Shown: piece after piece, positions 19,103 to 40,279 of the stretch
Numbering within the stretch: the stretch's first letter is position 1
Layout: each line of letters starts with the position of its first letter
Source: a bacterium
Lineage (GTDB): Bacteria; Patescibacteriota; Minisyncoccia; Phycocordibacterales; Phycocordibacteraceae
Assembly (NCBI GenBank): GCA_037200965.1
Contig: JBBCGK010000001.1
Span: 128,001 to 192,000, forward strand
Direction: 5' to 3'
DNA: 64,000 nt
Notes under the pieces: generated by a model
Database searches by the model: none
Seen by the model: the letters and a program-made list of their open reading frames with translations, nothing else
What the model was told of the DNA's origin: nothing
Program-made: the position numbers and the translations under genes

Positions 19103-19138
19103 CCGAAACGCGTGCGGAGGAGTTATCCACTTGCCGGT

Positions 19139-19150
19139 GAACCGTGGTTC
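19139..19150. promoter_or_regulatory. LexA operator (Cheo-type SOS box GAAC-N4-GTTC)
   Basis: GAACCGTGGTTC inside the longer palindrome GGTGAACC-GT-GGTTCACC, 16 nt upstream of the lexA ATG. Confidence 0.65.
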
Positions 19151-19165
19151 ACCTATCATGTATGC

Positions 19166-19744: not shown

Positions 19745-19748
19745 CGGT

Positions 19749-22589: not shown

Positions 22590-22900
22590 TCCGCGGTAGC
22601 TCAATGGTAGAGCAGCTCCCTGTGGCAAACGCAGCTTCCAAAGGAAACTTTGGTCGAAGAACGAGGTGAATTCGGGGAACCCCGAGCGAGAAATCGCGGG
22701 CAATCCCGAGCCAAGTCCCGAATGTCGGGAAAGGTGTAGAGACTATCTCGCAAGAGAGTACTTGGAAAGACGGATTAATCTTTGTCTTTCCCGGGAAGCG
22801 CCTCGCACCCTTCGGGGTGATGATATAGTCCATCCCTGCCAGTAATGGAAGGAGCGATGTAAGGAGTTGGTTCCAGGTTCGAGTCCTGGCCGCGGAGCCA
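22590..22900 (+). tRNA. tRNA-Asn(GUU) interrupted by a group I intron
   Basis: Exon 1 (22590-22623): acceptor TCCGCGG, D-arm GCTC-AATGGTA-GAGC, anticodon stem GCTCC plus CUGU. Exon 2 (22860-22900): UAA-GGAGT, variable TGGTT, T-arm CCAGG-TTCGAGT-CCTGG, acceptor CCGCGGA, discriminator G, CCA. Spliced anticodon loop CUGUUAA gives anticodon GUU. Confidence 0.75.
22624..22859 (+). ncRNA. group I intron (~236 nt) in the tRNA anticodon loop
   Basis: 5' exon ends in U; intron ends in G. An IGS-like GCAG (22631-22634) can pair with exon CUGU, including a U-G wobble. Conserved core R-like GTAGAGACTA (~22735-22745) and S-like GATATAGTCC (~22822-22831). Confidence 0.7.
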
Positions 22901-24502
22901 GATAGGATTAACATCAGCGAAAGCTGGTGTTTTTCCTTTATTGACGGGCTTTTTTGGCGGTTCGAAAGTTCTTTTTTCGTCTGTTTTTTCTCCCATCATC
23001 TGCATGACACGGTCGGAGATGATTTTGAAGGCTTTATGGTATGAAATCTCCACTTTCTTGCCGTTTATCGTCGAGTTCGAAAATAACAGCGACATCAAAA
23101 GCTTCTTGTCGTCGACCATCTCGAGCGTGCTCCGGTTTACGTAAATCTTCCGCGCCTCCTTGGCCATCTGCAAGAAAGTCGATCCCATGTCGAAGTACTT
23201 GAGATTAGCGTTCTTGTGCTTATTGAGGCTATCCATCACTTCTTCCTGCTCGAGCTTGTACTGCGCGTACTTTTTCTGATAGAAGTCCTCGCTTATTTTG
23301 CCGTCGATCTTATCGTCATATATTTTGTCGAGCCGTTGCGTCGCCGTCTGATATCGTCGCTCCAGCTCGCCGGTTGCCTTTTCCCTGAATTCTATTTCCT
23401 CGCTATGGCTTTCCTTGAGTGCTTCCTGAACCCAGGTGAGCATATGCTCGATGGCCTCGTCATGCTTCGAGCTTAACTGCTCGATATTTTCCATCACTTG
23501 CTCGTCGACCTGCTCCTGCCGGACATATTCTTTCTGCGTGCAGTTTTTATAGTGATTGCAGTGGCCATACCAATGGCCTTTCTGTATCTCCCACGTTACG
23601 CGGCCCTTGCACTCCTCGCACCGAAACACGTTTTTGAAAAGCGAGTTGTGCTTGTTGTATCTCGGCGTGCCGTTGCTGTGCATGATGTCTTGGCACCGCA
23701 TGAATAATTCTTTGGTGATAAGCGGCTCATGTCCGCCCTGGGCGACTTTGCCGTTCCAGCGGTTCATGCCGTAGTAGAACGGATCGCCAAGAAGCTGATG
23801 CACGCGCGAGTGACTTACCTTGTTGCCTCCGCGCGAGCGCATGCCGAGCTTGTACATCTCATCGGCCAGTTTCTTGGTCGAGTGTATATTCGTGGCATAG
23901 AGTTCGAACATTCTTTTGACGATCGGTGCCTTATCCGGATCGAGCACGTGGATTTTGTGTCCCTTCTCGCCGACGGTTTTGTAGCCGAGCGGCGGCTTGC
24001 TCGGCAGCCAGCCTTGCGCGAGCTTTTCTTTCTGGCCTTTCTTCACGTTCTCGGAAAGGAGTCGGATGTAGTACTCGGCCGTGGCTACTTTGACGCGCCA
24101 CATAAACCACTCGTGCGACTTGGAGTCCTTGTGGAGCGTACAGCTCTCTTTGACGAGGTGGATGGTGTGCTTTTCATCGGCCAGTATCCACTCGTCGATG
24201 ACCGGCACGTCGGCAAAGTTGCGCGTGAGGCGGTCGGTCGTCTCGACGAAGATCGTGTTGATCTTCGTCTTGGTCACGTATTCGAGCATCTCGTGGAATA
24301 TCTTGCGCTGGATTTTGCCAGCCGCCGATTCCTGGATGGCGAATACCTTGACCATCTCGTAGCCGTTGCGATCGGCATAGTCGTGCAAGAGCTTTTCCTG
24401 CGCCGGAAGCGAGTAACCGGTATCCTCCTGATCCTTGGATGACACGCGGGCGTACCCCACGGCTCGCAATGGTTGATTTTCTTGATTCATTGTCATGGTC
24501 AT
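22775..24502 (-). CDS. large serine recombinase (phage/ICE-type integrase)
   Basis: AVGYARVSSKDQ catalytic Ser region, recombinase domain, Cys-rich zinc-ribbon (CEECKG...CNHYKNC), coiled-coil C-terminus. Track ORF starts at a GTG (24550); an ATG at 24502 is the more likely start. The 3' ~126 nt run antisense through tRNA exon 2 and the intron 3' end. Confidence 0.85.
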   Translation of the reverse strand: MTMTMNQENQPLRAVGYARVSSKDQEDTGYSLPAQEKLLHDYADRNGYEMVKVFAIQESAAGKIQRKIFHEMLEYVTKTKINTIFVETTDRLTRNFADVPVIDEWILADEKHTIHLVKESCTLHKDSKSHEWFMWRVKVATAEYYIRLLSENVKKGQKEKLAQGWLPSKPPLGYKTVGEKGHKIHVLDPDKAPIVKRMFELYATNIHSTKKLADEMYKLGMRSRGGNKVSHSRVHQLLGDPFYYGMNRWNGKVAQGGHEPLITKELFMRCQDIMHSNGTPRYNKHNSLFKNVFRCEECKGRVTWEIQKGHWYGHCNHYKNCTQKEYVRQEQVDEQVMENIEQLSSKHDEAIEHMLTWVQEALKESHSEEIEFREKATGELERRYQTATQRLDKIYDDKIDGKISEDFYQKKYAQYKLEQEEVMDSLNKHKNANLKYFDMGSTFLQMAKEARKIYVNRSTLEMVDDKKLLMSLLFSNSTINGKKVEISYHKAFKIISDRVMQMMGEKTDEKRTFEPPKKPVNKGKTPAFADVNPIWLRGQDSNLEPTPYIAPSITGRDGLYHHPEGCEALPGKDKD

Positions 24503-24546
24503 AATTGCTAATAATTTGTTGGTTCGAATTCGACGTTCGGTACCAG

Positions 24547-24596
24547 ACACACCATATGCCTATTCGTTTGCGCTGCTAAGCCCGAGTTACCCACAT
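24547..24596. repeat. copy A of an imperfect ~50-60-nt repeat (TATGCCTATTCG...AAGCC...GTTACCCACAT)
   Basis: Shares blocks CCTATGCCTATTCG and GTTACCCACAT with 35475..35534; same orientation; immediately upstream of the intact recombinase gene. Confidence 0.5.
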
Positions 24597-24708
24597 TCCA
24601 CCAGTCTTTTGCTCGAAACGTTGGGTTTTGTTGGCTTTTGTTGGGTATTTGCAGCATTTTCCGGTGGCTACTGGTGGGTTCCGGTGACTCAAAAACGGTT
24701 AAATAAGG

Positions 24709-25293
24709 TCAGTTGCGGTTAAATGACGACCGGCCTTTCATCGTCATTTTTGCTACCAGCTTGGCTTTCATGTCGTTGATCTTCTTGAGGTTCGCGCCGT
24801 TAACTTCTTTATAATTTTCTTTAATTTCTTTTGAACCCTTAGCTTCTCTATCTTCTCCGTGCGATGCGGTATGCGCCGCGTGCCGGCCGGCATTTCGTGC
24901 AGATCGGCCGCCATCCTGCGCCAGATGTAGGACGGAAAGCAAGGTGATGCTTCGTGGCTTGAACTTGGCATCCGCGCCACGCACTTTCGTGGTCACGATA
25001 AATGCCCACGCTTCGAGCGTGTCGAGACATTTCTTGATCGTGCGCCAGTCTTTGAGGCCACAGTAAAGCAAGAGCGTCCGGTTCGACGCCTCGATGGTTT
25101 GGCTCGCTTTGTTCGATGCGATCTCAGTCAGAGCGCAGTAGACATTCCGCAGATTGCGGTACGCATCATCGCTTACGCGCTTGTCGATCCATTCCTGTCG
25201 CATGTACCGCAAAGCCGGCTTGTCTTGATAGGCAAACGGAGCTTCGCGGTAGTCTCGGACCTTATGCTTTTGTTCGCTTTGGTTTGGTGTCAT
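24709..25293 (-). CDS. hypothetical protein of integrative element (possible wHTH replication/regulatory protein)
   Basis: Basic protein; wHTH-like segment ASNRTLLLYCGLKDWRTIKKCLDTLEAW. Confidence 0.4.
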   Translation of the reverse strand: MTPNQSEQKHKVRDYREAPFAYQDKPALRYMRQEWIDKRVSDDAYRNLRNVYCALTEIASNKASQTIEASNRTLLLYCGLKDWRTIKKCLDTLEAWAFIVTTKVRGADAKFKPRSITLLSVLHLAQDGGRSARNAGRHAAHTASHGEDREAKGSKEIKENYKEVNGANLKKINDMKAKLVAKMTMKGRSSFNRN

Positions 25294-25471
25294 ACGGTTC
25301 GATGAGCGTGCGGCCGCTCGTGATGTCCTCGAGGTAAAACCGCGACAGCGCGTCGTAGTACCTCACCAGATTGAAGGCGATGTCGTGCAGGTCTTGGTCG
25401 TTTACGTCCAAGCCAAAGTCATGCTTCAGGATCGCACGGAGCTTCTCCAGCGTTTCCGGTTTGATTTTCAC
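25262..25471 (-). CDS. hypothetical small protein
   Basis: 69-aa ORF; 3' end overlaps the next gene start. Confidence 0.3.
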   Translation of the reverse strand: MKIKPETLEKLRAILKHDFGLDVNDQDLHDIAFNLVRYYDALSRFYLEDITSGRTLIEPYDTKPKRTKA

Positions 25472-25476
25472 AGGTC

Positions 25477-25719
25477 TTAGTCCTCGGCATAAATCCGTAC
25501 TTTGACCTGTTTGAGCTGGTTGAAGAACGCCTGCGGTTCGACCGCAAGCTCGCGATTCCAGTATCGCTTCACCAGAGAATCCAGGTCAGGGCTCTTGCCG
25601 AAACAAAAGAGCACCTTGTGCGGATTTCCCCGATCCACGACCTCCAGAGAATCAGGAATGAATAATAAAAGCACCGCGACCAATGCCAGGTCGGCGGTTT
25701 TGTAATAATTGTTTTGCAT
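25477..25719 (-). CDS. hypothetical small protein
   Basis: 80-aa ORF in the same gene string as the recombinase. Confidence 0.3.
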   Translation of the reverse strand: MQNNYYKTADLALVAVLLLFIPDSLEVVDRGNPHKVLFCFGKSPDLDSLVKRYWNRELAVEPQAFFNQLKQVKVRIYAED

Positions 25720-25868
25720 GTGGCATTTTCATTGTCATTAACGTCCTCTCACACGCATTCATTGTGGCAATTTGGCATACGCTTCTGGAATACTGCGAGC
25801 GTGTAGTCAGACACGAAAAAAGCAGCCATTTTGCTGCTTGTCGCTCCCACTTATTAACTACATCAGAG

Positions 25869-26534
25869 CTACACCTCTTTTATTTTGTATTCCGGATTGA
25901 GTTTGTATCCGTTTACGGCGCGGCCAACGATAAAGCTGTCGATGCCGAGCGCGTAGCGCACCTTGCGGTTGATCATGAGCTTCGCGTTGTGGAGCGACTT
26001 GCGGTTCTTGCTTCCGGTCAATCCTACAAGCTCGTCCGTTGGCACATACCCCTTTCGTTCAAGAAGGACCCGTACGATTTTCTGCCGTTGCTTTTCCGTA
26101 CCCATCGAGTAGCAATGCTTAGCTTTCGGCTCGCGGTACAGGTCGCCATCTTTTGAAAAGTAAACGGTCTTTTTACTATCTGCCGGCTTGGTTCGCTTGC
26201 CGGCAAGGCCGTATGCCGCGCCTTCGGCCGTGAGCTTCGCCACGCTTGTTTCCAAGTCCGCGATTTTGCCAAGCGCAGCCAGATACGCTCGTGTCATTGC
26301 TTCTATGCTCCGGCTGTTTTGATTGAGCGCACCCACCAATGCTTGAATGGCCAGATCGTCGGTCTTTACCAGTTCGGCCGGCCGCTCGATGTCCGCAAAG
26401 TCCCTGAGCGCGGATCGCAGTTCGCCGGTAATCGCAGAGGTAGAAAAGCGATAAGCATTCGCCATACCGACAGACCGGTTCGTATTGAATTTGTACGTCT
26501 TGGCCAATGTGGCCTTTTTCATCTTCATAATCAT
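25869..26534 (-). CDS. hypothetical protein of integrative element
   Basis: 221-aa ORF; C-terminal wHTH-like region; divergent from the AbiE operon. Confidence 0.4.
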   Translation of the reverse strand: MIMKMKKATLAKTYKFNTNRSVGMANAYRFSTSAITGELRSALRDFADIERPAELVKTDDLAIQALVGALNQNSRSIEAMTRAYLAALGKIADLETSVAKLTAEGAAYGLAGKRTKPADSKKTVYFSKDGDLYREPKAKHCYSMGTEKQRQKIVRVLLERKGYVPTDELVGLTGSKNRKSLHNAKLMINRKVRYALGIDSFIVGRAVNGYKLNPEYKIKEV

Positions 26535-26636
26535 CTTTAAGCCGTATTGCTTATTCTGGATAAGCTACTTGTGCTTAAGCTTAGTATATCATATAATGCA
26601 CTGGAAGTTAGCTTTAAACTAACTATAGGTAAGTAT

Positions 26637-27254
26637 ATGGATAATAAACCGACAAAAGGTCAATATGTAGAGGTCTTATTGAGATCTCCCAAAACCGTCT
26701 TTTCAATCAAAGACGTGGCTTTGTTATGGGGAGAAGAAGCTGAAAATGCTGTTCGCGTCAGATTAAACAGCTACGTAAAAAGCGGTAAGTTGATCCGAGT
26801 ACATCGCGGCTTTTATGCTAAAGACAAGAATTACAACCGTTCTGAATTAGCGACTGCGATCTACACTCCCTCTTACATCAGCTTTGAGTCTGTTTTAACT
26901 CGTGCCGGTATCAACTTTCAATACTACGGCAATATTTTTGTTGCTTCATACGTGACCAGAGAGATCGAAGCTGATGGTCAAAAAATCTCTTTCATCCGCA
27001 TGAAAGATTATGTCTTAAGTAACACTGCCGGCATCGAGCATACGGAAGGTATTGCCACAGCAACTAAGGAGCGCGCTTTCTTGGACCGGATTTATGTCAG
27101 CAAAGACTATCATTTCGATAATTTGGATGCTTTGGATTGGGATAAAGTCTTTGAGATGTTACCTATCTACCACAACAAGCGAATGGAAAAGAAAGTAAAG
27201 ACCTATCTCGAGCACTATAAAAGCAACCAGCCCGATAAAGCGAAAAACGTATGA
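26637..27254 (+). CDS. AbiEi-family antitoxin/transcriptional regulator
   Basis: N-terminal wHTH and ...SGKLIRVHRGFYA... typical of AbiEi; stop overlaps the AbiEii start. Confidence 0.6.
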   Translation: MDNKPTKGQYVEVLLRSPKTVFSIKDVALLWGEEAENAVRVRLNSYVKSGKLIRVHRGFYAKDKNYNRSELATAIYTPSYISFESVLTRAGINFQYYGNIFVASYVTREIEADGQKISFIRMKDYVLSNTAGIEHTEGIATATKERAFLDRIYVSKDYHFDNLDALDWDKVFEMLPIYHNKRMEKKVKTYLEHYKSNQPDKAKNV

Positions 27255-28285
27255 CTTTAGATTACTCAAAGCACAAAGCAATATTGCTCCAAATTCTCAA
27301 GGATATTTATTCCGATACTTCGATCGCTCCTCACTTGGGTTTCAAAGGCGGGACGGCCGCGCTTTTATTCTACGGACTCAATCGTAACTCGGTAGACTTG
27401 GACTTCGATCTGTTGGACGAAAGCAAAGAGGCAGAGGTCTTTGAGAAGATTCAGAAAATCACTGCGGCCTATGGAACGATTACCGATTCCTACATTAAAA
27501 AGTTCAATCTCCTGAATGTTATCTCTTACGCACCTGGAGCACAGAAGATAAAAGTCGAAATCAATCGCCGGAACTTTGGCTCGCGCTATGAGCTTAAGAC
27601 CTTGCTTGGTATCTCCATGCTGGTCATGGTGGAAGCTGATACATACGCCCACAAATTGATGGCCATGTACGAGCGCGTCGGTAAGACGAGCCGTGATATT
27701 TTCGACGTGTACTATTTCGAAAAGAAAGGCTGGGATATCAATAAAACTATTGTTGAGGATCGTTCCGGACTGTCATTCAAGGACACCCTCGCCAAGTGCA
27801 TCGATTTGCTGGAAAAGATGGATAACAAGCACATCTTGGATGGCTTGGGTGAATTGCTGACAGATCCGCAAAAAGATTGGGCCCGCGCCAAGCTCAAAGA
27901 AGAGACTATTTTCTTGCTCAAAGTAAAAATGGAAGGCTTGGGCAAGATTGATACCCTGCCGCCATATACTTCGGCCGATGTTGAAGCTATACAAACCATA
28001 CTCAATGATAAGTTCTTTAAGAACACTCCTTTTGCATGCGAGAAATTGACGGTTAAAAAGGATAAAGTGTTTTTCGAAAAGAACAGCTCTGACGAGGATA
28101 GCTACGGGTACGACATTGAGTGCGTGCTTTTGCAGGATGGTAAGAAGGTAGAAGTCTCGATCGATCCGATAACAAACAAGGTCGGCGCAGATCAAGTTGC
28201 CCATCTCATAGCACATACCGTTTGGGCAAAGCTGGATCAATCGATGACCAGTCAGCTTTGGAAGAATTTTCCAACCAACCTATAA
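27251..28285 (+). CDS. AbiEii/AbiGii-family nucleotidyltransferase toxin (DUF1814)
   Basis: GFKGGTAALLFYGLNRNSVDLDFDL, the hallmark NTase motif of AbiEii. Confidence 0.7.
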   Translation: MTLDYSKHKAILLQILKDIYSDTSIAPHLGFKGGTAALLFYGLNRNSVDLDFDLLDESKEAEVFEKIQKITAAYGTITDSYIKKFNLLNVISYAPGAQKIKVEINRRNFGSRYELKTLLGISMLVMVEADTYAHKLMAMYERVGKTSRDIFDVYYFEKKGWDINKTIVEDRSGLSFKDTLAKCIDLLEKMDNKHILDGLGELLTDPQKDWARAKLKEETIFLLKVKMEGLGKIDTLPPYTSADVEAIQTILNDKFFKNTPFACEKLTVKKDKVFFEKNSSDEDSYGYDIECVLLQDGKKVEVSIDPITNKVGADQVAHLIAHTVWAKLDQSMTSQLWKNFPTNL

Positions 28286-28289
28286 ATTT

Positions 28290-29360
28290 ATGCCAAAGGA
28301 AATCGCCAAAAAGTCATTGAATAAGAACTTGCACAAGGCAAGCGCCGCGAAGAAAGATGAGTTTTATACTCAGATTGTTGATATTGAAAAAGAGTTGAAA
28401 CACTACAAAGATCAATTCCGTGGCAAGGTAGTGTATTGCAACTGCGATGATCCATTTGAGAGCAACTTCTTTAAATATTTCGCAGGAAATTTCAATGCAC
28501 TCGGACTGAAAAGACTTATTGCCACTAGTTACAAGCCGTCTCCTATAGCCAATACGCAATTAGGGCTATTTGGCGACATCAAGGCCATAAACACGCCCAA
28601 GGGCCGTCCTAAGGTAACCGCGAACAAATTCATTATCAATGAAGTTGATGATATAGACGGCGATGGCGCATTTGACTTGCGTGATATTGCCGAGCAACTC
28701 AAGGCTAACAAAAACAATGAATGGGCTCCATTAGAGGGTGAAGGAGATTTTAGAAGTGAAGAAAGCATAGAACTGCTGAAGCAAGCTGATATTGTAGTAA
28801 CAAATCCGCCTTTTTCCTTGTTCCGCGAGTATGTCGCACAGCTAGTAGAACACAACAAAAAGTTTTTGATTCTAGGTGACCAAAATGCAGTAACCTATAA
28901 AGAAACCTTTGGCTTCATCAAAGAAAATAAACTATGGCATGGCTACGACAATGGTGGCACAAAATGGTTTCAGGTTCCTGACGATTATGACATTGAGACT
29001 GAATCAAGAATAAAAGTTGAGAATGGTATAAAGTTTTTCAGCATGGGTAGAATTGTGTGGTATACAAACCTCGAGACCACAAAACGTCACGAGAAAATAG
29101 TCTTGTATAAGAAATATACACCAGAGGAATTCCCTAAATATGATAATTCCGATGTTATAAACATCGATAAAGTCTCCGATATTCCGATGGATTATGACGG
29201 AGTGATGGGTGTACCAATTACTTTTGTTGATAAATATAGTCCAGCACAGTTTGAAATTTTGGGTATCGCTAATTCCGCAAGATGGATTGGTTACGAATGT
29301 TTTACCTTGATTAAAGGTAGGAAAATATATAATCGAATTTTAATTAAGCGTAAAAAATAA
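28290..29360 (+). CDS. putative N6-adenine DNA methyltransferase
   Basis: NPPF (VVTNPPFSLF) motif IV and upstream DEFYTQ; 5 nt after AbiEii and 1 nt before the next gene. Confidence 0.55.
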   Translation: MPKEIAKKSLNKNLHKASAAKKDEFYTQIVDIEKELKHYKDQFRGKVVYCNCDDPFESNFFKYFAGNFNALGLKRLIATSYKPSPIANTQLGLFGDIKAINTPKGRPKVTANKFIINEVDDIDGDGAFDLRDIAEQLKANKNNEWAPLEGEGDFRSEESIELLKQADIVVTNPPFSLFREYVAQLVEHNKKFLILGDQNAVTYKETFGFIKENKLWHGYDNGGTKWFQVPDDYDIETESRIKVENGIKFFSMGRIVWYTNLETTKRHEKIVLYKKYTPEEFPKYDNSDVINIDKVSDIPMDYDGVMGVPITFVDKYSPAQFEILGIANSARWIGYECFTLIKGRKIYNRILIKRKK

Positions 29361-29361
29361 T

Positions 29362-30465
29362 ATGAAAATTGATCTAAACAAAATTACTGTGCGGGAAGTC
29401 GTGAATGGCTACAAAGATGGCTCTGAGGAGGGCGTTGTTGCGTATGGTGGAAAGCTTGATGTGCGCCCGAAGTATCAGCGCGAATTCGTATACAAAGACA
29501 AACAGCGCGATGCGGTTATTGATACCGTTAGAAAAGGCTTCCCTCTCAACGTGATGTATTGGGTGAAAACCGATGACGGAAATTTTGAAGTACTTGACGG
29601 ACAGCAGAGGACAATCAGTCTAGGCCAGTATGTAAATGGCGACTTCTCGGTGGATTTCAATGGTCGCCTCGCTATGTTCCATAACCTTACCAAAGAGGAG
29701 CAGGAACAAATTCTGAACTACGAATTGATGATTTATTTCTGCGAGGGAAACGATAAAGAGAAACTTGATTGGTTTAAGACAATCAATATTGCCGGAGAGC
29801 GTTTAACCGACCAAGAGCTACGCAACGCTGTATATACCGGCCCGTGGCTTTCTGATGCAAAGCTAAAATTCAGCAAATCAAACTGTGCGGCGTATTTGTT
29901 GGCAAACGATGGCGGACAGTTAATTAGCGGCTCGCCGATCCGGCAAGAGTATTTGGAAACCGCACTCTCGTGGATAAATAACGATGAAGTGGCCAATTAC
30001 ATGGCCAAACATCAACACGACGAGAATGCAGAGGAATTGTGGGCTTACTTCCAAAGCGTTATTGCATGGGTACGAAAGACGTTCCCAAATTACCGCAAGG
30101 AAATGACGAGTGTGAATTGGGGTGAGCTATACAACGAATTCAAAGACAAGAAATTGAATGAGACTAAGCTCGAAGCCGAAGTTAAGAAGTTGATGCAAGA
30201 CGAGGACGTGACGAAAAAGTCCGGTATCTACCCTTATGTCTTAACGGGACAGGAGCGAGAGCTTTCTATCCGCGCTTTTACCGACAAGATGAAGCGTGAA
30301 GCATACGAGCGGCAAGATGGCATCTGCCCGTTTTGCAAGAAAAAATATGACATCTCAGAAATGGAGGCCGATCATATTGCTCCATGGCATGAAGGTGGAA
30401 AGACTACGGCCGAAAATTGTCAGATGCTCTGCAAACAAGACAACCGGACGAAGTCTGGAAAATAA
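29362..30465 (+). CDS. DUF262 (ParB-like DGQQR NTPase/nuclease) plus C-terminal HNH endonuclease protein (GmrSD-like)
   Basis: DGQQR motif (LDGQQRT) and HNH motif DHIAPWHEGGKTTAENCQMLCKQDN. Confidence 0.75.
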   Translation: MKIDLNKITVREVVNGYKDGSEEGVVAYGGKLDVRPKYQREFVYKDKQRDAVIDTVRKGFPLNVMYWVKTDDGNFEVLDGQQRTISLGQYVNGDFSVDFNGRLAMFHNLTKEEQEQILNYELMIYFCEGNDKEKLDWFKTINIAGERLTDQELRNAVYTGPWLSDAKLKFSKSNCAAYLLANDGGQLISGSPIRQEYLETALSWINNDEVANYMAKHQHDENAEELWAYFQSVIAWVRKTFPNYRKEMTSVNWGELYNEFKDKKLNETKLEAEVKKLMQDEDVTKKSGIYPYVLTGQERELSIRAFTDKMKREAYERQDGICPFCKKKYDISEMEADHIAPWHEGGKTTAENCQMLCKQDNRTKSGK

Positions 30466-30482
30466 GGTTATGAAAGAGTCCC

Positions 30483-32966
30483 ATGAAAATCATCCGAGCT
30501 ATACAATTTTTCTTTCGTAGGATTTCATGGAGACAGAGAACCTCTCCCTCCTTTGCTTTTGAAGTGGACAAAAAACCGAACTGGCTCGTCTATGCTTGGG
30601 GTGTCTTTGCCGGCTTCTTTTACAGCATCTTTCAGCGACGACGCGAGTCATTAAGGGTACTTTACCGCAATCAGGAACGCCGGAAGACTGAGTACACCAT
30701 ACCGATGCAGATCGTGCGGCAGTCTATGGGTACGATCTTGGTTCTAATACTGGCACTGGTCGGAGTAACCCTCGCTGATTGGGGCGTCGAGAAGCTCGCA
30801 AATCTACTCTCTCAGGTGCAGGCCGGCTGGTTTATAGCTTTCGCCGCACACTTTAATTTCTTTACGATTCCCGACAAAGAATTCTTTAAGCTCGTGCTTG
30901 AGATATCTATTGGCGCGATCTCCGCCATCCTCGGACTCTTATTTGCTTTATACGCGGTCGGTCTCCAGCTCACGACCGATAAGTACTCGTCTAAGGTGTC
31001 CGATTACGTCAATCAGGAAACCGTCGGCAATTTCTTTTTCAAACTCCTCGTCTTTACTGATATCTTTGCGATTGCCGTCTTGCTCCGTATTCAGATTCTC
31101 GCGCTTCCGTCACCGATCAGCTTCATTGCCGTTGTCGTTCTAGTAGTTATCTGCTTGCTTGGCATCATTGTTTTCAAGAATCACTACATTCTCACCATCA
31201 AGCCGAAGAACCTTTTTGAGAGGTTGCAGTCCGACATAAAGACGAGCATCCGGCTTGCCTCGGATCGGACCCGGTATTCCTATAAAAGCTGGAGCATTGT
31301 GCAGACTTCGCGCGTGCGAACGCAGGATCATCTCTCAATACTCAAAACTCTCTTTGAAGATCTCTGGCACGCCGAAAATTGGAACGACGTGATTTACACG
31401 CCGATGGTGCTTGCAAACTTGATCACCGACTACGCCAAGCGAAAGAAATATATCGACAGAGAGCGTGGCTGGTGGTTCCCGCAAACGCAGGTGGAGGTCA
31501 AGGCAAACAGCATGTCTACGCTCACCCTGAAGCTGAATTTCGAGCTTCAGGGCAAAGGGCCTCTGCGTATAGGTAGCCCAGACTATTTGTGGTTCGAGAA
31601 CGGTATTTTCGACATTCTCAAAGCGGTAGAGTCTCGTGTTGGAACTGCGCCGCAGGATACTCATCTGCTCAAATACGTCATTGATTTTTATCAGACCGCA
31701 CTTGCTGGCGACTACGAAAAAGATGAGTACAGCCGCTATCAGAAAGCAGTCGCGGGTCTATATGAGAATCAGGAGACCGACGCTTTCGAGAAATATCTCG
31801 ATGGCTTCTTTGCTTTGTATGAGAGAGTGCAAACCGACGACGAGCTGGGCGCGTATCTCAACGCTTACTTTGCGATCGGGCTGACTCTTATCGACGGCTT
31901 CGATTACGCCAAGTATCAGGAGGTAATAAAATCGCTCATCGGCGCAGACGGCCAGCTCACTCGCACCCGTGAGGAGCTTGCTCGGCTCGATCTGCCCGGA
32001 GTGTTTTATAACCAAATCCTCGACTACTGGGATCGCCTCGATCTTGAAGTCCAGTGTGAGGGACGCGTTATAACGCCGCAAGACCGGCTCGAAAAGGAAA
32101 CGCTCGACGATGCCCATGCAAAGGAAAAGCAGTACTTCGCCAAATTCTTTGAGAAGCTGATTACGCACCACAACACCGTTCTCCAAGACCTCTACCAGAA
32201 AGGAAAACATAAGGAGCTTGCGATGTTCATCAAGGCTCGCTTCGAGTGGATCAGTCGCTTGCTTTATATCAACAAGGTTGCTCTGGCCGACGAGTATGGC
32301 GCGAAGATCGCCGGTGCTGGCGTTTACCTTCCATTTCTGCCAAAGCAGATACTTCTCGACTCGGAGTTTTGGGAAGAACTTGAAAAGACTCTATTCCCAT
32401 CAGTCATTGAAAATTGCCCAACGCTTTTTAAGGTGTTGTCCGGATTGCTCACGCTCATGTTGCCAGTCATCAATGCCGACGAGAAAAATGTCGACAACAT
32501 CATGTATCGCAATCGCCTCGGTCTCATTCTTGGCGGATTCGTATACCTCGTCTGCGAATTCAGGCAGGATTACAGCCTGATGATCGAGTACGTGCAAACG
32601 ATTGAAGTTGCGTACCAGCCAGGCCAGTTCGTCAAAGCAATGGAGGTACTCTCGAAGCCGAAGGAAGTCGGAGGTCTCGACCTCACGCTCAAGCTCATAA
32701 ACTGGGAGCTTACTCGCTACCATCACTGGTTCGGCGAAATCCTCGGCCAGATATCGGAGCTTCCTAAGACCTACGATAACGTCCGTGTCTATTCCGGCTT
32801 GCAAGAGGTCGCAGACCATCCGAGCAAGTTCATCCGTGAGTTGAGCTACCGGCCGTACCAGCCGGAGGAAGAATGCGCGGAGGCATTTGTCGAGTGGGCA
32901 AAGAAGCGAGATGCTATCCGACAATTGGTCGAAGTGCTTAAGAAAGTTCAAGAGAAAAAGATATGA
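30483..32966 (+). CDS. large (827 aa) membrane-anchored protein of unknown function
   Basis: ~4 TM helices in residues ~80-230, then ~600-aa soluble region with no recognisable motif; low GC. Confidence 0.5.
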   Translation: MKIIRAIQFFFRRISWRQRTSPSFAFEVDKKPNWLVYAWGVFAGFFYSIFQRRRESLRVLYRNQERRKTEYTIPMQIVRQSMGTILVLILALVGVTLADWGVEKLANLLSQVQAGWFIAFAAHFNFFTIPDKEFFKLVLEISIGAISAILGLLFALYAVGLQLTTDKYSSKVSDYVNQETVGNFFFKLLVFTDIFAIAVLLRIQILALPSPISFIAVVVLVVICLLGIIVFKNHYILTIKPKNLFERLQSDIKTSIRLASDRTRYSYKSWSIVQTSRVRTQDHLSILKTLFEDLWHAENWNDVIYTPMVLANLITDYAKRKKYIDRERGWWFPQTQVEVKANSMSTLTLKLNFELQGKGPLRIGSPDYLWFENGIFDILKAVESRVGTAPQDTHLLKYVIDFYQTALAGDYEKDEYSRYQKAVAGLYENQETDAFEKYLDGFFALYERVQTDDELGAYLNAYFAIGLTLIDGFDYAKYQEVIKSLIGADGQLTRTREELARLDLPGVFYNQILDYWDRLDLEVQCEGRVITPQDRLEKETLDDAHAKEKQYFAKFFEKLITHHNTVLQDLYQKGKHKELAMFIKARFEWISRLLYINKVALADEYGAKIAGAGVYLPFLPKQILLDSEFWEELEKTLFPSVIENCPTLFKVLSGLLTLMLPVINADEKNVDNIMYRNRLGLILGGFVYLVCEFRQDYSLMIEYVQTIEVAYQPGQFVKAMEVLSKPKEVGGLDLTLKLINWELTRYHHWFGEILGQISELPKTYDNVRVYSGLQEVADHPSKFIRELSYRPYQPEEECAEAFVEWAKKRDAIRQLVEVLKKVQEKKI

Positions 32967-34066
32967 GACGACGCGCTTACAAACAAAGAGTGAAAGGCTA
33001 TGTGTTCGATGATCCGTTCCTCGGCTACATTCAAGGCCGCGACCGGCTAGAGAAGGCGTCATGGAACGCAATGGAACTAAGCAACGAGACCGACTCTGTA
33101 CGGTACTCGCTCTTTCCGTTGCGCGATATACCGGTGGCGGATCGTCCCGGCTATGTGACTCACGAACGCAATTACTTCAGCATCGAGTGCGATGATCCAG
33201 TCTTGAAAAAAGACCTCGAGATGTATTTCACCGACGAGCATTCGTTCTATCGGGATGGCCTGTACGGTCAGGGCGATGTGCTAGGAGGCTTTTTGGAGAG
33301 CATCGCGCACGAGCTGTTTGTGGTCGGCGATTCATTCCGCATGATCGAATGGGAGGAGGTCGATATCAAAGGCCGGAAGTATCAATTTCCAGTCGACTTT
33401 GAATATCTCAGGAACGAGACGATGAAAGTGCGCCGCAAGGGAGGGTTGATCGTAGGTTATCGGCAAAAGTACAGCCTCTTTACCTATCTCAAGGAGAAGC
33501 GATTCAAGGGATACGAGGATAAAGAGAAGCCGCGATCGTTTGAGTTTGAAAAAGAGGAGGTTGTGTACTGCAAGTATCCGTTTGCTAAAAAGTCGCCGAC
33601 GGCGCAGAGCATCAAATACCTTAAGCCAATCAAGAAGTTCTGGCAGTTCGGCATTGATCAATCGAAGAGTGGTGTCGAGGTAGAAAATCATTATCTGCCG
33701 CTTGAGCGAGCGCGGTACACCACCTATTCGCGAGAGAAACGGAAGTACGATATCGCTCGTGGAAAGATACGCACCATTTTCAATTACTTGATGGAAACGA
33801 ACGGGCCTAAGCTCACGCAGTATTACGATATATACACCGTGATCCGCTACAAAAAATTCCTCAATGACTTTAGGGATTATTTGGTACGAGAATTCAACGA
33901 GCAGGTGCTGGCGATCGTGGCAAAAAGGAATGGCTTTACTTCCGTCCCTAAACTCGTCTATAGTGGCTTTCTCTCTAATGCCGAACTGGATGCCGCACTA
34001 CAGGGTTACACAGACGGCACGATCACGTTTGATCAGATTGTTCAGCAAATAGTAAAAAAGTCTTAA
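32963..34066 (+). CDS. hypothetical protein (367 aa), translationally coupled
   Basis: ATGA overlap with the upstream gene; no recognisable motif. Confidence 0.45.
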   Translation: MRRRAYKQRVKGYVFDDPFLGYIQGRDRLEKASWNAMELSNETDSVRYSLFPLRDIPVADRPGYVTHERNYFSIECDDPVLKKDLEMYFTDEHSFYRDGLYGQGDVLGGFLESIAHELFVVGDSFRMIEWEEVDIKGRKYQFPVDFEYLRNETMKVRRKGGLIVGYRQKYSLFTYLKEKRFKGYEDKEKPRSFEFEKEEVVYCKYPFAKKSPTAQSIKYLKPIKKFWQFGIDQSKSGVEVENHYLPLERARYTTYSREKRKYDIARGKIRTIFNYLMETNGPKLTQYYDIYTVIRYKKFLNDFRDYLVREFNEQVLAIVAKRNGFTSVPKLVYSGFLSNAELDAALQGYTDGTITFDQIVQQIVKKS

Positions 34067-34072
34067 AAAGAT

Positions 34073-34666
34073 ATGGGAGAAAAAGATAAACAAATTCTAA
34101 AAGATTCCGCGTTGGTCATTGCCGACCAGATAGCGTCCGCATTGCCGGGATTAAATATTGCATGGGGTTTAAGCAAGGCATTGTATGGTGCTGGTCTAAA
34201 ACTTCGTGAACAAAGAGCATTGGAATGGATTGAAATGGTTAGAGATAATCCCTCGGCATTTACTGAAACAATTATGCAAGATGCGAAATTCCAAGACGGA
34301 TTTGTGTACGCGTTGGAGCGTTATATCAGAGAGAAAAACGATAACAAAAGAAAAGCGATGCGCTCCGTATTTCTTGGGTTTGCGCTATCTCCGAATCAGG
34401 ACACTTTTGAGCTAGAGAGGATGTACCATGTATTAGGTATTCTTAGTGCAGAGGATATGATCGTTTTGAAGGATGTCGATTTTACACGAACCGATTTTCA
34501 TCAAGTGTATGAGCAGACTACCGACAAAAATGAGAACGTCTACAATTTGGTGAATGCCGGAATCTTGATGTCTGACTATTCATCTCGCATTGGCCCCATA
34601 GCCGCGCCATTTATAAAAGTAACTGCGTTTGGGAAAAGTTTTGTCGGATTCTTAAAATCAACATGA
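34073..34666 (+). CDS. hypothetical protein (197 aa)
   Basis: 6-nt gap after the upstream gene; stop overlaps the start of the DUF2726 gene. Confidence 0.4.
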   Translation: MGEKDKQILKDSALVIADQIASALPGLNIAWGLSKALYGAGLKLREQRALEWIEMVRDNPSAFTETIMQDAKFQDGFVYALERYIREKNDNKRKAMRSVFLGFALSPNQDTFELERMYHVLGILSAEDMIVLKDVDFTRTDFHQVYEQTTDKNENVYNLVNAGILMSDYSSRIGPIAAPFIKVTAFGKSFVGFLKST

Positions 34667-35175
34667 CAATCTTTTATATAATTATAGGCATCATTATAGT
34701 CATCGCAGTAGCACTCGCAATTTCCCGTGGAGGTTTTGCTGACGTGGCGGAGAAAGCTAAGTATCGCTATAACCGCAAGAATTTCTTCCTTACTCGAGCA
34801 GAGCACGAATGCTATGACGCTCTCGTTGCGGCAGTCGGCGCGGAGTATCGCATTTTCGCACAGGTGCATTTGCCAACACTGGTCGATCACACGGTTCGGG
34901 GGCAGGATTGGCGCGCGGCTCTGGCTCACATCAATCGGAAGTCTGTTGACTTCGTGCTATGCGATAAGGCGTATCTCTCTCCAAAGCTTGCTATTGAGCT
35001 TGATGATAAGTCCCATGAGCGACCCGATCGGCAAGAGCGCGATCGCGAAGTCGAGCGGATTCTGCGCGAAGCCGCCGTGCCGCTTTTGAGGCTAGAGAAT
35101 CATGGCCATTTTGCTCCTGACGAACTAAAAAGATTGATCGAGAACGCTCTGACACCGTCTACTCCAACAACTTAA
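34663..35175 (+). CDS. DUF2726 (NERD/PD-(D/E)xK-like nuclease fold) protein with N-terminal TM helix
   Basis: FLTRAEHECYDAL...RKSVDFVLCDK...AIELDDKSH, characteristic of DUF2726. GC content rises sharply relative to the upstream genes. Confidence 0.6.
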   Translation: MTIFYIIIGIIIVIAVALAISRGGFADVAEKAKYRYNRKNFFLTRAEHECYDALVAAVGAEYRIFAQVHLPTLVDHTVRGQDWRAALAHINRKSVDFVLCDKAYLSPKLAIELDDKSHERPDRQERDREVERILREAAVPLLRLENHGHFAPDELKRLIENALTPSTPTT

Positions 35176-35470
35176 AACGGCGCAGTTCTTTCTGCGCCGT
35201 TTCTATGTCCTCGAGGACTTTGAGATAGATTCGCTTTGTTTTCTTTGATTTCGGATTGCGCTCGGCAAAGAGGACGTCGTCATCCTCGACGAAGCCGGCG
35301 AGCGAGATGTACGCGCCCGCGAGATGTCTCATGCGATCTTTGAGCGCCGCCTTCAGTTTGGCTTTCGGCTCCGGAAGCAAAGAGAGCGGATTGAGCATGC
35401 CTTTCCGGTATTTGAGTCGTATATCTTTCGCAGCGCGGATAGCTGCGTCGATGTCCTCGGTATCTTCCAT
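35159..35470 (-). CDS. hypothetical small protein
   Basis: 103-aa ORF convergent with the DUF2726 gene; the 60-nt repeat lies in its upstream region. Confidence 0.3.
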   Translation of the reverse strand: MEDTEDIDAAIRAAKDIRLKYRKGMLNPLSLLPEPKAKLKAALKDRMRHLAGAYISLAGFVEDDDVLFAERNPKSKKTKRIYLKVLEDIETAQKELRRFKLLE

Positions 35471-35474
35471 CGCA

Positions 35475-35534
35475 ACACGACCCTATGCCTATTCGCGTGA
35501 GAAGCCAAGCTCGTTTTGGCGTAGTTACCCACAT
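35475..35534. repeat. copy B of the imperfect repeat
   Basis: See copy A; lies between ORF 35159..35470 and the recombinase remnant. Confidence 0.5.
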
Positions 35535-35729
35535 CTCGTGCCAAGGCTTCAAATTTCGTCAAACCGGTGGTCGAGGGTGCAAACTGGTATCAGTTGTGGA
35601 TCGCTCCGACAAAGTTCGCTACAGGGGCACACAGGCGGGAAATCGAGGGGTTATAGGTTTTCGTACTTGGCCAGGAGGCCTTTCATTTGGTCGAGCACCA
35701 CGGTCGGATATTTGTACTCCTCCGCCCAG

Positions 35730-36319
35730 TCAAAAGTTCGAAAGTCGTTCAGAAGGGCGAGCAGAATAGGACAGAGAGACTCGAAAGAGTCTTTTATTTA
35801 CCTTGTTATTTTCGAGTTCGAAAGTCTTTCCTAGGTCTATCCTCTCTTGAACACGCTGGGCCAGCTTTTCAACTGGCTTTGTGAGTGTGTAGGCCACTTT
35901 TTCGTCCTTAAGTAGTAGGTTCGAAAAAATTTGACCCAAAAAAGTACCCTCCGCTCCTCAGGGGTTCTGCGTAGGTAGATTTCTCGTGCTCGTGTTGCAA
36001 GATCAACAATGTTAAGCCAAATCTCGAAGTATTTAGCCTCATCATCTTTAAGTCTCGAAATCTGAGACTGGGGGCTTGTTTGCTCCTCGGTTATTTCCTT
36101 CTGCTTAGTTTCCCATTGATAGACGGTAATACGTCCCTCCAAACGATCATCGTAAAGTACGTCCAAACGCCTCTGTAAGGCCTTCCAGCGGGCGTTTAGG
36201 GCACTTACGGTCTTCTCCTTGTATTCGATTTCTTCAGCAGGAAGTTTATTTCGAAAGTAAGCAAAGCACCTTAATGTATCATTTCGAAACCTTCTCGACC
36301 TTGCCAGTCGCCCGATCAA
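35730..36319 (-). pseudogene. remnant of a second large serine recombinase gene (C-terminal coiled-coil/tail only, frameshifted)
   Basis: ORF 35837..36319 (EEIEYKEKTVSALNARWKALQRRLDVLYDDRLEGRI...) aligns with EEIEFREKATGELERRYQTATQRLDKIYDDKIDGKI of the intact recombinase. ORF 35730..35939 (...KLAQRVQERIDLGKTFE) aligns with its tail (...KIISDRVMQMMGEKTDEKRTFE). Confidence 0.55.
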
Positions 36320-37196
36320 GTGAATACTGTCCGCAATCTGCGCATGTTTGTTCGCCTGCGCCGTCTCCCTTCAGATATTTGTAGAACAAGACCTGCGAGC
36401 CGTCTGTTGAGAGAGACGCGCTATCCGAGAAGCCATATGGGAAGCTCTGTACGGTTGCTGCCTTTTTATCAATAACGCAGATGCGAGAAGCACTCATATA
36501 TCCAATCACTTGCAGGTCGTCGGAGAATGCGCCGGGAAATATTTGCGGTTCGATAGGATCGGCATCTGCCGGATTGCACGCCGGAGGCAGTGCCTTTGCA
36601 TACTGCGCGTTGTCGGTGATGAGGCTTGCAGGACCAAATCGCTTGTCGCTTATATAAATCGCATTCTTATCCCTCGAAGCACTCTGAGGCAAAATCTCGA
36701 ATGTTGTAGGGTTGGCACCGGGCAGCTCGCGCCACGTATCCCAGACGCGGTACTGATCTTTGGCATAGCTGCTTCCCGGAATCACACTGAAAGTCCTGGT
36801 ATCCGCGCCGGGCACGAGGTAGTAGCCTCCGTAGACGACATGCGTTGCGTCTTTACCGTAGTTGGCATCAACAACGACAAAGGTCGCTGGATCAAAATTC
36901 GCCACGACATTTGTGCACATGTAGACATTGTTCTTGTCTTTAGCATATGCACTGTTCGACGATGCTTCAAACGTTGCGACGTCCGCTTCGCCTATGGGAT
37001 TTCCCTGGCAATAAATCGTATCGCCATTCATCCAAAACCATTTGTTGTCGCTGACAGAGGGTTCATGTTTGGGCAGGGCGCTCGCCGGAATCCATGTGGA
37101 TTGCTGAGAAGCTGGTGAATACATTTTCCATATCGCAAAACCGCATGCGAGTATCGCTACAATCAGTATCGTGCCAAGAATAGTTTTTCGTTGCAT
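36279..37196 (-). CDS. membrane-anchored DKNYY-repeat protein
   Basis: N-terminal TM; repeats DKNNVY, DKNAIY (DKNYY family). Confidence 0.6.
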   Translation of the reverse strand: MQRKTILGTILIVAILACGFAIWKMYSPASQQSTWIPASALPKHEPSVSDNKWFWMNGDTIYCQGNPIGEADVATFEASSNSAYAKDKNNVYMCTNVVANFDPATFVVVDANYGKDATHVVYGGYYLVPGADTRTFSVIPGSSYAKDQYRVWDTWRELPGANPTTFEILPQSASRDKNAIYISDKRFGPASLITDNAQYAKALPPACNPADADPIEPQIFPGAFSDDLQVIGYMSASRICVIDKKAATVQSFPYGFSDSASLSTDGSQVLFYKYLKGDGAGEQTCADCGQYSLDRATGKVEKVSK

Positions 37197-37200
37197 CTTG

Positions 37201-38028: not shown

Positions 38029-38405
38029 TCAAAATTAATAGCCTTATGGTACTCCTTTTCAGGCTTTTTAGCTTGTGTGAGTGTTATGACGTGCAAAGGC
38101 CTCGTTTCTTGCTGGAGTATAATGAAAGCCTACAGCGACGCGAATTCCCATCAGCTTCGGCTGATGGGAATTTTCGTATAAAAATCACTTTACAAATTCA
38201 AAGGGCGACTCCCGACGTAGCACCTTTACGGCAGCCTCCATCTCGTAGGACTTGTAGCCACTTAAAATAACGGTTCTAAGTTCTCGCACCGCTCGGAGCA
38301 AAGCTGGGCGGACCGACACGAAAGTGTCGGTTTCGTCTTTATTTGCCTAATTCTTTATTTATGATATAGTCCACTCGGCAACTTGAACACGGAAGGAATA
38401 CGGCC

Positions 38406-39329: not shown

Positions 39330-39647
39330 ATGCAAAACTGCATCATCATCCACGGCTGCCCCTCGAACGTCGAGAAGGCGATGAATCCCGAGACTCGGAC
39401 GCATGATAAGCATTGGATTCCATGGGTTAAGAACACGCTTACAAAATTCGGAATTCCGACCGAGGCTCCGCTCATGCCCGAACCGTGGGAGCCGTCATAC
39501 GAGAAATTCAAGGCAGAGTTGCGCCCGCTCCACTACCCTCTAATCGCGAGCCGCCTCTGCGGCAAGATGCCCAGCGAGCGTAGTGATGAAGGTCTTGAGA
39601 CTGGTGAGCTCGCTCATGTCCGAGTAGTCGCCGGTGTCCTTGGCTGA
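39330..39647 (+). pseudogene. truncated RBBP9/YdeN-like serine-hydrolase N-terminal fragment
   Basis: MQNCIIIHGCPS...HWIPWVKNTLTK... resembles the N-terminus of RBBP9/YdeN-family alpha/beta hydrolases. The nucleophile motif is absent or degenerate, and the frame runs into the convergent REase gene. Confidence 0.35.
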
Positions 39648-40274: not shown

Positions 40275-40279
40275 ACGTT

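Follow-up and report, generated by a model that had tools for sequence, protein, structure and literature searches.

A probable composite of two site-specific serine integrase elements at the 3' end of a tRNA-Asn gene with a group I intron, from a Patescibacteria chromosome

What has been inserted at the 3' end of a tRNA-Asn gene located in a 64,000-nucleotide stretch of a Patescibacteria chromosome (assembly GCA_037200965.1, contig JBBCGK010000001.1; hereafter the window), and where do the inserted sequences begin and end? An original prediction, made from the nucleotide sequence, had proposed a single feature at 22775-36319, including a serine recombinase gene antisense to the tRNA, two imperfect direct repeats and the remnant of a second recombinase. 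Our comparison with approximately 85 related loci resolved the layout as an intact element A (22898-35761; 12,864 bp), followed by a relic element B (35762-38298; 2.5 kb) and by the displaced tRNA terminator of the host (38310-38333). The composite is thus longer than the interval first delimited, extending to 38298, and element A has its own boundaries at 22898 and 35761. Quite likely, the tRNA-Asn 3' end was the target of two site-specific integration events, both mediated by large serine recombinases (LSRs), which together gave rise to this composite. Both elements have a lower GC content (0.476 in A and 0.491 in B) than the flanks (0.584 and 0.568). The GC drop that had been described at position 22900 is present but modest (0.565, 0.507 and 0.475 in succession), the deep trough (0.33-0.46) being found instead in the cargo from 26600 onward.

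The recombinase of element A harbors Resolvase, Recombinase and Zn_ribbon_recom Pfam domains. The N-terminal catalytic domain of an LSR is covered almost completely (PF00239, E = 4.6e-22, profile positions 1-143 of 145), and the protein has a YARVSS motif, with R8, S10 and S11 invariant in the alignment of its relatives. The Recombinase and zinc-ribbon/coiled-coil region is represented by PF07508 (1.2e-18) and by PF13408 (25.3 bits, exactly its cut-off), and the protein also matches an integrase PHROG, a phage family. A homolog with a native tail (P0058; 52% identity to recombinase A) gave a predicted model with the complete LSR architecture (mean predicted local distance difference test (pLDDT) score of 80; beta strands at 282-330, helices at 352-441 and strands at 455-469). 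A structure search with this model matched the SPbeta, Bxb1, PhiC31 and LI integrases over its full length (E 5e-20 to 1e-10), and its top matches in the Protein Data Bank (PDB) were all full-length LSRs. A total of 1865 database relatives of recombinase A were found at E <= 1e-10.

The target gene was missed by ARAGORN, which called zero tRNAs on the raw window. Joining the exons 22590-22623 and 22860-22900 led ARAGORN to call a canonical tRNA-Asn(gtt) of 75 nt, and an Rfam match to a group I intron (64.1 bits, E = 5.8e-14) covers positions 22608-22852. Self-splicing group I introns between nt 35 and 36 have been described in Patescibacteria genes for tRNA-Asn and for tRNA-Asp (Nakagawa et al., 2026, PMC13011429), in a study of tRNA introns where recombinases, islands and integration at these genes go unmentioned. 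The gene studied here has the same, unusual insertion site, is likewise missed by ARAGORN and, based on the Rfam match and the spliced call, appears to belong to this group, which places the organism among the bacteria and not the archaea. As originally proposed, the recombinase gene is antisense to it: its last 41 codons (22900 to 22778) lie opposite exon 2 (41 nt) and a stretch of 82 nt in the intron.

To what extent this arrangement recurs was determined by a survey of left junctions in 80 metagenome loci and the L083-L088 set (recombinases with at least 60% identity), which yielded 55 non-redundant junctions, including 23 at intronless tRNA-Asn genes, 16 at tRNA 3' exons that follow an intron, one at tRNA-Gln and 15 at non-tRNA sequences, most of them P-arm-like. 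Relatives of the recombinase therefore adjoin a tRNA 3' end in 40 of the 55 junctions, in unrelated host contexts, which supports the predicted integrative element at the tRNA-Asn 3' end; the flanks differ among L083-L088 and the metagenome loci, and both ends are shared with L088, as expected of such an element. The 3' end of the recombinase gene overlaps an intronless tRNA-Asn in L084 and is followed by a group I intron, belonging to an intron-containing tRNA-Asn, in L085 and L088. At the protein level, the 120 closest homologs include 71 that either have WL(R/P)..DSN..P as their C-terminus, a peptide translated from the strand opposite to CCA, acceptor stem and T-loop, or stop just past WL. 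Side observations concern other junctions. In L107 the same integrase family lies directly at a tRNA-Gln(ttg) gene (11603-11676), which shares the ..GAGCCA end, and tRNA-Gln genes are found 0.5-1.4 kb from junctions in L083 (13015-13086), L103 and L109; tRNA-Gln is a possible secondary target. The junction of L099 at ~11603 (..GGGGTACGGATCACA/TATGGGATG) has neither a tRNA nor a GAGCCA core, and corresponds either to an off-target insertion or to a later rearrangement.

Directly after the tRNA, every element has (G/T)AT(A/G)GGAT followed by a hairpin and a T-run. The 11 distinct P' stem sequences all fold (z -2.8 to -6.2), and the hairpin at 22910-22931 is terminator-like in the terminator scan. 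The occurrence of a hairpin and T-run after the tRNA in every element suggests that the element supplies the tRNA terminator, encoded antisense within the integrase 3' end. In addition, GAGCCA was found in 40/40 A-type tRNA junctions, but CCA is encoded by only one of eight other tRNA-Asn genes of the candidate phyla radiation (CPR). The unoccupied CPR genes in L057 and L061 read GGAGCCT.. and GGAGCCC.., i.e., they have no encoded CCA, and the A-type-occupied genes all read GGAGCCA. Integration appears to convert the tRNA-Asn gene to one that encodes its CCA.

At the opposite end, blastn aligned window positions 35149-35763 with L088 (86% identity), a second shared block that stops at GAGCA. 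The similarity runs through GTTCGAAAGTC.TT.AGAAGGGCGAGCA and then ends, L088 continuing with a host hairpin. In the window, the sequence to the right (GAATAGGAC, the hairpin at 35774-35795 and then GTTCGAAAGTC) aligns to the element side of attL. Taking into account both the end of the similarity and this alignment, we place the end of element A at approximately 35761.

The two arms of the recombination sites have a common design. A consensus built outward from the crossover end (25 tRNA arms, 15 P arms) has GGAGCCA at positions 7-1 and TCC at positions 17-15 in both, so that positions 1-17 are in register, and GTTCGA starts at position 24 in tRNA arms (GTTC in 40/40) and at position 29 in P arms. 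For the LI integrase, the zinc-ribbon motif of attB is 5 bp nearer the centre than that of attP, and the recombinase domain keeps the same register (Rutherford et al., 2013, PMC3783163). The geometry of the P arm matches this rule, suggesting that the P arm is a mimic of the tRNA T-arm with a 5-bp expansion, and GTTCGA can tentatively be assigned as the motif of the zinc-ribbon domain (ZD). The att sites share GAG(C)CA alone (tRNA nt 71-76), in agreement with the short att sites of LSRs. A displaced fragment of the tRNA 3' end that could serve as the far att site was searched for with up to 3 mismatches, and no second copy was found in the window, where the tRNA 25-mer is unique. The locus is not a classical tyrosine-integrase tRNA island, as its enzyme is a serine recombinase and the tRNA 3' end is not duplicated.

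With regard to the point of exchange, the candidate right ends read GAGCA in four of four cases (elements A and B in the window, L088 and L129), and the junctions into an A-type P' arm read GAGCCA in 11 of 11, irrespective of the P arm. The bases after GAG follow the right-hand partner, which suggests that the exchange occurs within GAG(C), corresponding to tRNA nt 71-74, and that the terminal CCA of the occupied tRNA (22898-22900) is probably element-derived. The coordinates of all features are listed below.

Features of the composite locus, in window coordinates (a slash marks a junction)
Feature	Coordinates	Strand	Details and basis
tRNA-Asn(GUU) 5' exon	22590-22623	+	tRNA positions 1-35; read from sequence
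Group I intron	22624-22859	+	At tRNA position 35/36; Rfam RF00028
tRNA-Asn 3' exon	22860-22900	+	T-arm and acceptor, the B arm of attL
LSR (recombinase A), integrated-state open reading frame (ORF)	22775-24502	-	575 aa; codons 1-536 native, last 39 antisense to tRNA/intron
attL core GAGCCA	22895-22900	+	Putative crossover in GAG(C), tRNA nt 71-74; junction comparison
P' arm of element A	22901-22945	+	Hairpin 22910-22931 with T-run, a substitute tRNA terminator; lies antisense within the 3' end of the recombinase gene
Repeat copy 1	24547-24596	-	Box 24585-24595; -35-like GCTTAGCA 24574-24581; -10-like CATATGGT 24551-24558
Conserved module	24709-26534	-	ORF194 24709-25293, ORF69 25262-25471, DUF5659 25477-25719, ORF221 25869-26534
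AbiEi and AbiEii	26547-28285	+	AbiEi (called 26637-27254), AbiEii (27251-28285); type IV toxin-antitoxin/abortive infection; PADLOC 3.9e-58 and 2.3e-77; Pfam
Type II restriction-modification (R-M) pair	28290-30465	+	EcoRI-like adenine methyltransferase 28290-29360; GmrSD_N and HNH endonuclease 29362-30465
Further cargo	30483-35175	+	DUF2254 membrane protein (827 aa), proteins of 367 and 197 aa, DUF2726 (34663-35175); Pfam
ORF103	35159-35470	-	Conserved solely in the window/L088 lineage, 94% aa identity
Repeat copy 2	35475-35534	-	Box 35523-35533; -35-like 35503-35510; -10-like 35480-35487; directly upstream of ORF103
Recombinase A frame beyond attP	35651-35761	-	Core Leu codon repeat 35759-35761; 34 detached sense codons (A..NL) 35654-35755; stop 35651-35653
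P arm of element A (attR side)	35736-35761	+	GTTCGAAAGTCGTTCAGAAGGGCGAG; tRNA T-arm mimic, GTTCGA 5 bp further out
P' arm of relic B	35762-35800	+	CAGAATAGGA..; hairpin 35774-35795; terminator scan, fold z -3.4; P' type as in L169
Recombinase B C-terminal fragment, frameshifted	35793-36238	-	Equivalent to residues 367-522
DKNYY-family protein and 275-aa protein	36279-38028	-	36279-37196 and 37201-38028; in relic B; Pfam; GC 0.49
Detached 3' tail of recombinase B	38185-38298	-	W/LRAVRELRTVILSG..FVK, stop; overlaps P arm of B (38273-38298)
Native B' arm, taken as original tRNA-Asn trailer	38299-38345	+	Terminator hairpin 38310-38333, 10 pairs and T-run
attP junction expected in excised element A			..GAAGGGCGAG/CCAGATAGGATT..; predicted
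Vacated site expected after loss of A			tRNA ..GCGGAG/CAGAATAGGAC..; predicted
Vacated site expected after loss of A and B			..GCGGAG/CAAAGCTGGGCGG..; predicted

The site at which element A would circularize lies inside its integrase gene. The ORF of the excised form runs on across attP for 37 codons counted from W (..NPIWLALLNDFRTFDWAEEYKYPTVVLDQMKGLLAKYENL, stop), with a length of 571 aa. The W and L codons lie in the shared core and are present in both states, so integration detaches 34 sense codons and the stop (35 codons, 35651-35755). L088 retains the same tail ORF, and the differences between the window and L088 number 5, 0 and 11 at codon positions 1, 2 and 3, respectively; the identity is 86.5% in the tail and 67% in the spacer beyond. 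Homologous tails (L....DFRT..W.E...P.....Q.K.LL) are present in distant homologs sampled in the attP state, and in the P0058 model the native tail is predicted to be helical (pLDDT ~58-66). An attP inside the integrase ORF is the hallmark of the self-splitting SSV-type integrases and is also found in relic B; the tyrosine fold and catalytic residues of the SSV type are absent from recombinase A, which has the serine recombinase architecture. Element A behaves like an SSV integrase in gene splitting alone and is not a member of that group.

The second recombinase noticed in the original prediction was recovered by tblastn (32% identity, E = 2e-12), with residues 367-458 encoded at 36238-35963 and residues 473-522 at 35930-35793 in a different frame. 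This fragment is closest (~40%) to the L156-L158 lineage, which also adjoins tRNA-Asn. The presence of a P' arm and a recombinase fragment of a second element immediately to the right of A bears out the suggestion that related elements integrated in tandem at a single tRNA site. Further to the right, one open frame of the B tail carries an RT motif and the other two frames stop early; the window contains just two matches to the P-arm pattern, at 35736 and 38273; and GC content rises from 0.443 to 0.557 at the right end of the relic. We take 38298 as this right end and the sequence from 38299 onward as the original trailer of the tRNA. The DKNYY-family and 275-aa genes between fragment and tail are either cargo or later arrivals.

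Tandem arrays of this kind were also detected in six related loci (L092, L113, L116, L122, L130 and L138), where a P arm terminates the integrase of an A-like element and a second element comes next. The LSR of this second element is 27-29% identical and adjoins tRNA-Asn in L113, L122 and L130. Since arrays are common, attL or attR seems to be used as a target, i.e., as a hybrid site. L083 had been considered an off-target pseudo-site and was rejected as such, given that its sequence is a P arm and hence an array junction. It should be noted that tRNA-Arg(tct) genes are present inside the arrays of L113 (2865-2938) and L130 (12675-12748), 0.2-1 kb past the P-P' junction, and are apparently carried by the tRNA-proximal element.

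Arrays also affect the reading of the split gene. In L113, L122 and L130, the tRNA-distal integrase ORF reads in frame into the P arm of its neighbour and regains a native-type ..DEFRT.. tail, as exemplified by L130 (WLPKLDEFRTINWEE, from our own in-frame reading of its P arm); window positions 35764-35800 belong with these three junctions in this respect. Judging from these reading frames, the position within an array may alter the integrase C-terminus. It is conceivable, though in our opinion doubtful, that the location of attP in the gene is a built-in state switch and not an accident, with a free form of 571 aa bearing the conserved two-helix tail (..DFRT..W..P..Q.K.LL), an integrated form of 575 aa with a swapped tail and an array-internal form that regains a native-type tail. 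If this were true and the tail tuned synapsis or directionality, it would represent a cis-encoded memory of the integration state in a serine integrase; together with the recognition of the universal tRNA T-loop, such a switch could explain how the rule of attP x attB only is broken and how arrays are built.

The remainder of element A consists of a conserved module and variable cargo. The module is syntenic in L083-L088 and in many metagenome loci, and four close homologs (76-87% identity) have the same succession of a ~220-aa protein, DUF5659, a ~70-aa protein, a ~190-aa protein and the recombinase. The designation of these genes as rep-like/wHTH is not supported: DUF5659 was the sole match of the four module proteins and ORF103 against Pfam, PHROGs, NCBIfam and PDB sequences. 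Based on small size and conservation, ORF103, ORF69 and DUF5659 are candidates for a recombination directionality factor. The defence gene string was correctly recognised, as it comprises AbiEi/AbiEii and a type II methyltransferase/endonuclease pair (Pfam 4.4e-133; PADLOC MTase_II 2.3e-118, REase_II 1e-146). The close homologs carry different cargo at the far side (methyltransferase/helicase; SIR2 and AlwI; BglII R-M; Mrr) and different host genes past the recombinase. With AbiE and type II R-M here and defence genes in the relatives, element A qualifies as a defence island in which four cargo genes lack an assignment; the region 30483-35175 had zero matches in PADLOC, PHROG and NCBIfam. The co-directional genes at 30483-34666 (DUF2254 protein of 827 aa, 367 aa and 197 aa) are a candidate for an uncharacterised defence cassette.

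Other placements of the ends must be weighed against this layout. Initially, we located the strand exchange at the terminal CA of CCA, in which case the element would add nothing to the tRNA and the excised integrase would end in NPICSPF after 538 aa. This version fits the attL (GAGC-CA-GATAGG) and attR (GAG-CA-B') of the window and L088, but it requires the C/CC state to track the left partner, which is contradicted by the 4/4 GAGCA and 11/11 GAGCCA junctions. Furthermore, unoccupied tRNA-Asn genes are mostly without CCA, and this frame breaks the conserved 37-codon tail kept in L088 and in distant homologs. We dropped this crossover, now regarded as improbable, since the C/CC state follows the right partner and the other frame alone preserves the conserved tail. 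An exchange within GAG(C) is retained. The imperfect repeats could, in principle, define other ends. They are real, having the same orientation, a 9-nt indel and a local alignment score of 42 (16 +/- 2.3 in 500 shuffles, none reaching 42), and they bracket the cargo, as would att sites or the ends of a cassette. Nevertheless, we find it very hard to credit such a role. Long direct repeats are not a feature of the products of serine integrases. Instead of lying beyond the recombinase, copy 1 is a conserved region 45-95 nt upstream of its start, and the box TGTGGGyAwCT is fixed 81-97 nt upstream of that start in 56/62 loci and occurs almost nowhere else. Copy 2 (90.6% identical to L088, with 67% in the adjacent spacer) sits ~230 nt inside the true right end of element A, the similarity with L088 continuing past it to 35763. 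In an alignment of five elements and both second copies, the box TGTGGGyAaCT, GCTTrGC and, 17 nt further, TAkGkT are invariant and the spacers vary. Of the two options originally offered, att-like or regulatory repeats, the conserved box and -35/-10-like hexamers favor the latter, the repeats being neither att sites nor cassette bounds. This pattern fits promoter/operator-like regions of the integrase and ORF103 that were duplicated in one lineage, with a putative promoter function.

The order of events and the nature of the element can also be read differently. We propose that A probably arrived later, inserting next to the tRNA. The reversed order, with A first and B later entering the attR of A so that arrays grow away from the tRNA, would produce an identical final structure, and the P arm mimics the tRNA arm, so the left side of attR resembles attB. 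However, B is the decayed partner, without ~366 recombinase codons and the entire conserved module, and native B' trailers are very diverse, suggesting that the tRNA arm is the main determinant and that newcomers land beside the tRNA. Neither of these two points is decisive, and the reversed order is a possibility that we consider the less likely one. As for its nature, element A could be a prophage, a phage satellite or an integrated plasmid whose four-gene module serves replication or helper exploitation, a reading compatible with, and not exclusive of, a site-specific defence island. The module stands beside the integrase in every relative without annotation, and the PHROG match of the recombinase points in the same direction. 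On the other hand, none of the ORFs matched a family for capsid, terminase, portal, replication or conjugation functions (Pfam, PHROGs and NCBIfam), the size is just 12.9 kb, and the variable part consists of defence genes in all relatives inspected. We regard this reading as unlikely.

Taking together the domain architecture, the junction statistics, the arm geometry, the conserved split ORF and the arrays found elsewhere, the following mechanism can be proposed. The LSR of element A, whose gene contains attP near its 3' end, would recombine this site with an attB made up of the T-loop-to-acceptor end of the tRNA and its trailer. Both sites would share just GAG(C)CA, with strand exchange within GAG(C) at tRNA nt 71-74, and the left (P) arm of attP would imitate the T-arm by means of GGAGCCA and TCC in register and GTTCGA 5 bp further out. 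Integration would leave the tRNA intact, provide it with an encoded CCA and a substitute terminator hairpin, and displace its native terminator. At the same time, the last 35 integrase codons would move to the far end, and the gene would instead read 39 codons into antisense tRNA/intron. The element would deliver variable defence cargo, here AbiE and type II R-M. The second element, B, would occupy the next slot, decayed to two arms, a recombinase fragment, a detached tail and two genes. Element A may be mobile at present.

Several observations weigh against this interpretation. Searches for an empty site and for an excised circle were both negative: with DinB, the recombinase and the right-flank gene as exact queries, only the same three island-bearing contigs were recovered (one from GCA_037975565.1); the DinB relatives, sought for an empty site, were at most 53% identical and all from metagenome-assembled genomes of Patescibacteria; and the attP-type junctions with enough sequence were all arrays, showing neither circular permutation nor terminal overlaps. 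Four right ends, of which the window provides two, are the basis for the crossover, and the ZD motif of the LI integrase is 4-5 bp closer to the centre than GTTCGA. The P-arm pattern by which the site of B was found is expected 0.19 times per shuffled window, with at least two hits in 1.7% of shuffles. A sigma-70 consensus scan of the repeats called no promoter, the hexamers (8/12) being below threshold, and the native tail is modelled with a confidence too low for a role to be assigned. Lastly, array formation is unexplained by the site rules as described for canonical LSRs, in which attP x attL or attR recombination does not occur.

Outside the composite, an apparent SOS operon with a LexA-like S24 peptidase and DinB (DNA polymerase IV) is located at 19112-21002, with the tRNA 1.6 kb to its right. 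GC content is also low (0.33-0.41) in a second block, at 7000-13000, which contains a Polysacc_synt flippase-like gene (8917-10254) and two unannotated minus-strand genes; it resembles a glycan locus and not a mobile element, neither a tRNA nor a recombinase being seen within it. To the right, an XhoI-family restriction endonuclease and an Eco57I/TaqI_C-type methyltransferase are encoded at 39540-42250, in DNA with host GC content 1.2 kb from the composite, so that this defence system adjoins the island but lies outside. A 13-mer at 38363-38375 (ATGATATAGTCCA), identical to the intron core at 22822-22834, was judged a chance match (~0.6 expected) and is probably meaningless; it overlaps a promoter-like TTGCCT-16-TATAGT.

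Serine integrases are valued genome-engineering tools whose natural targets are thought to be almost all protein-coding genes, and the present family is a large and diverse clade (the 1865 database relatives) dedicated to a tRNA gene end. An attP that copies the T-arm with the 5-bp offset predicted from crystal structures offers a natural, many-fold replicated illustration of the model of attP/attB recognition, and points to the near-universal GTTCGA T-loop as the recognition handle. The frequent arrays, which imply hybrid-site use, are relevant to directionality control. The locus also shows by what means defence systems are exchanged among CPR/Patescibacteria, whose mobile elements are poorly known.

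Among known systems, the SCCmec/Ccr elements of staphylococci are likewise LSR islands at the 3' end of a housekeeping gene that form tandem composites with decayed members. They differ from element A in their protein-gene target (rlmH), the paired CcrA/CcrB, the flanking direct repeats and the resistance cargo. The integrases of Listeria A118/LI, Bxb1, PhiC31 and SPbeta have the same architecture as recombinase A, short att sites without long repeats and an outer motif that is 5 bp closer to the centre in attB than in attP, whereas the system described here has a tRNA 3' end as target, an attP inside the integrase ORF, common arrays and a CPR host. Serine integrases are "not known for targeting tRNA genes", and their use of t(m)RNA genes in 14/297 cases was presented as unreported and needing proof (Mageeney et al., 2020, PMC7192596); tRNA is unmentioned in the LSR census of Durrant et al. 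(PMC10083194). Literature searches combining Patescibacteria or CPR with serine recombinases, tRNA-Asn, or integrative or defence islands yielded no description of this integrase family.

The closest parallel in gene organization is provided by the SSV-type "suicidal" integrases, with attP in the integrase ORF, a tRNA target and a gene partitioned by integration (PMC7253208, PMC8371274), all of which apply to element A. The SSV-type enzymes are archaeal tyrosine recombinases from which a large part is removed, whereas recombinase A is a serine recombinase that loses its last 35 codons, retains all recognised domains and gains an antisense-tRNA tail; it can be regarded as the equivalent, in a bacterium and among serine recombinases, of the self-splitting integrases of archaea. 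Tycheposons, with tyrosine integrases in 910/937 (bioRxiv 10.1101/2020.12.28.424599), and Islander-type islands resemble the present locus in having an integrase beside a tRNA, modular variable cargo, and degenerate integrases and older elements piled up; at their far end, part of the tRNA remains as a direct repeat, whereas here no tRNA fragment is duplicated, only GAG(C)A. An integrative defence island with a decayed neighbour is thus an ordinary category that is unusually realised in this case, through a clade of serine integrases specialised on the end of a tRNA, an attP that mimics the tRNA and lies in the integrase ORF, the donation of CCA and a terminator, and frequent arrays.

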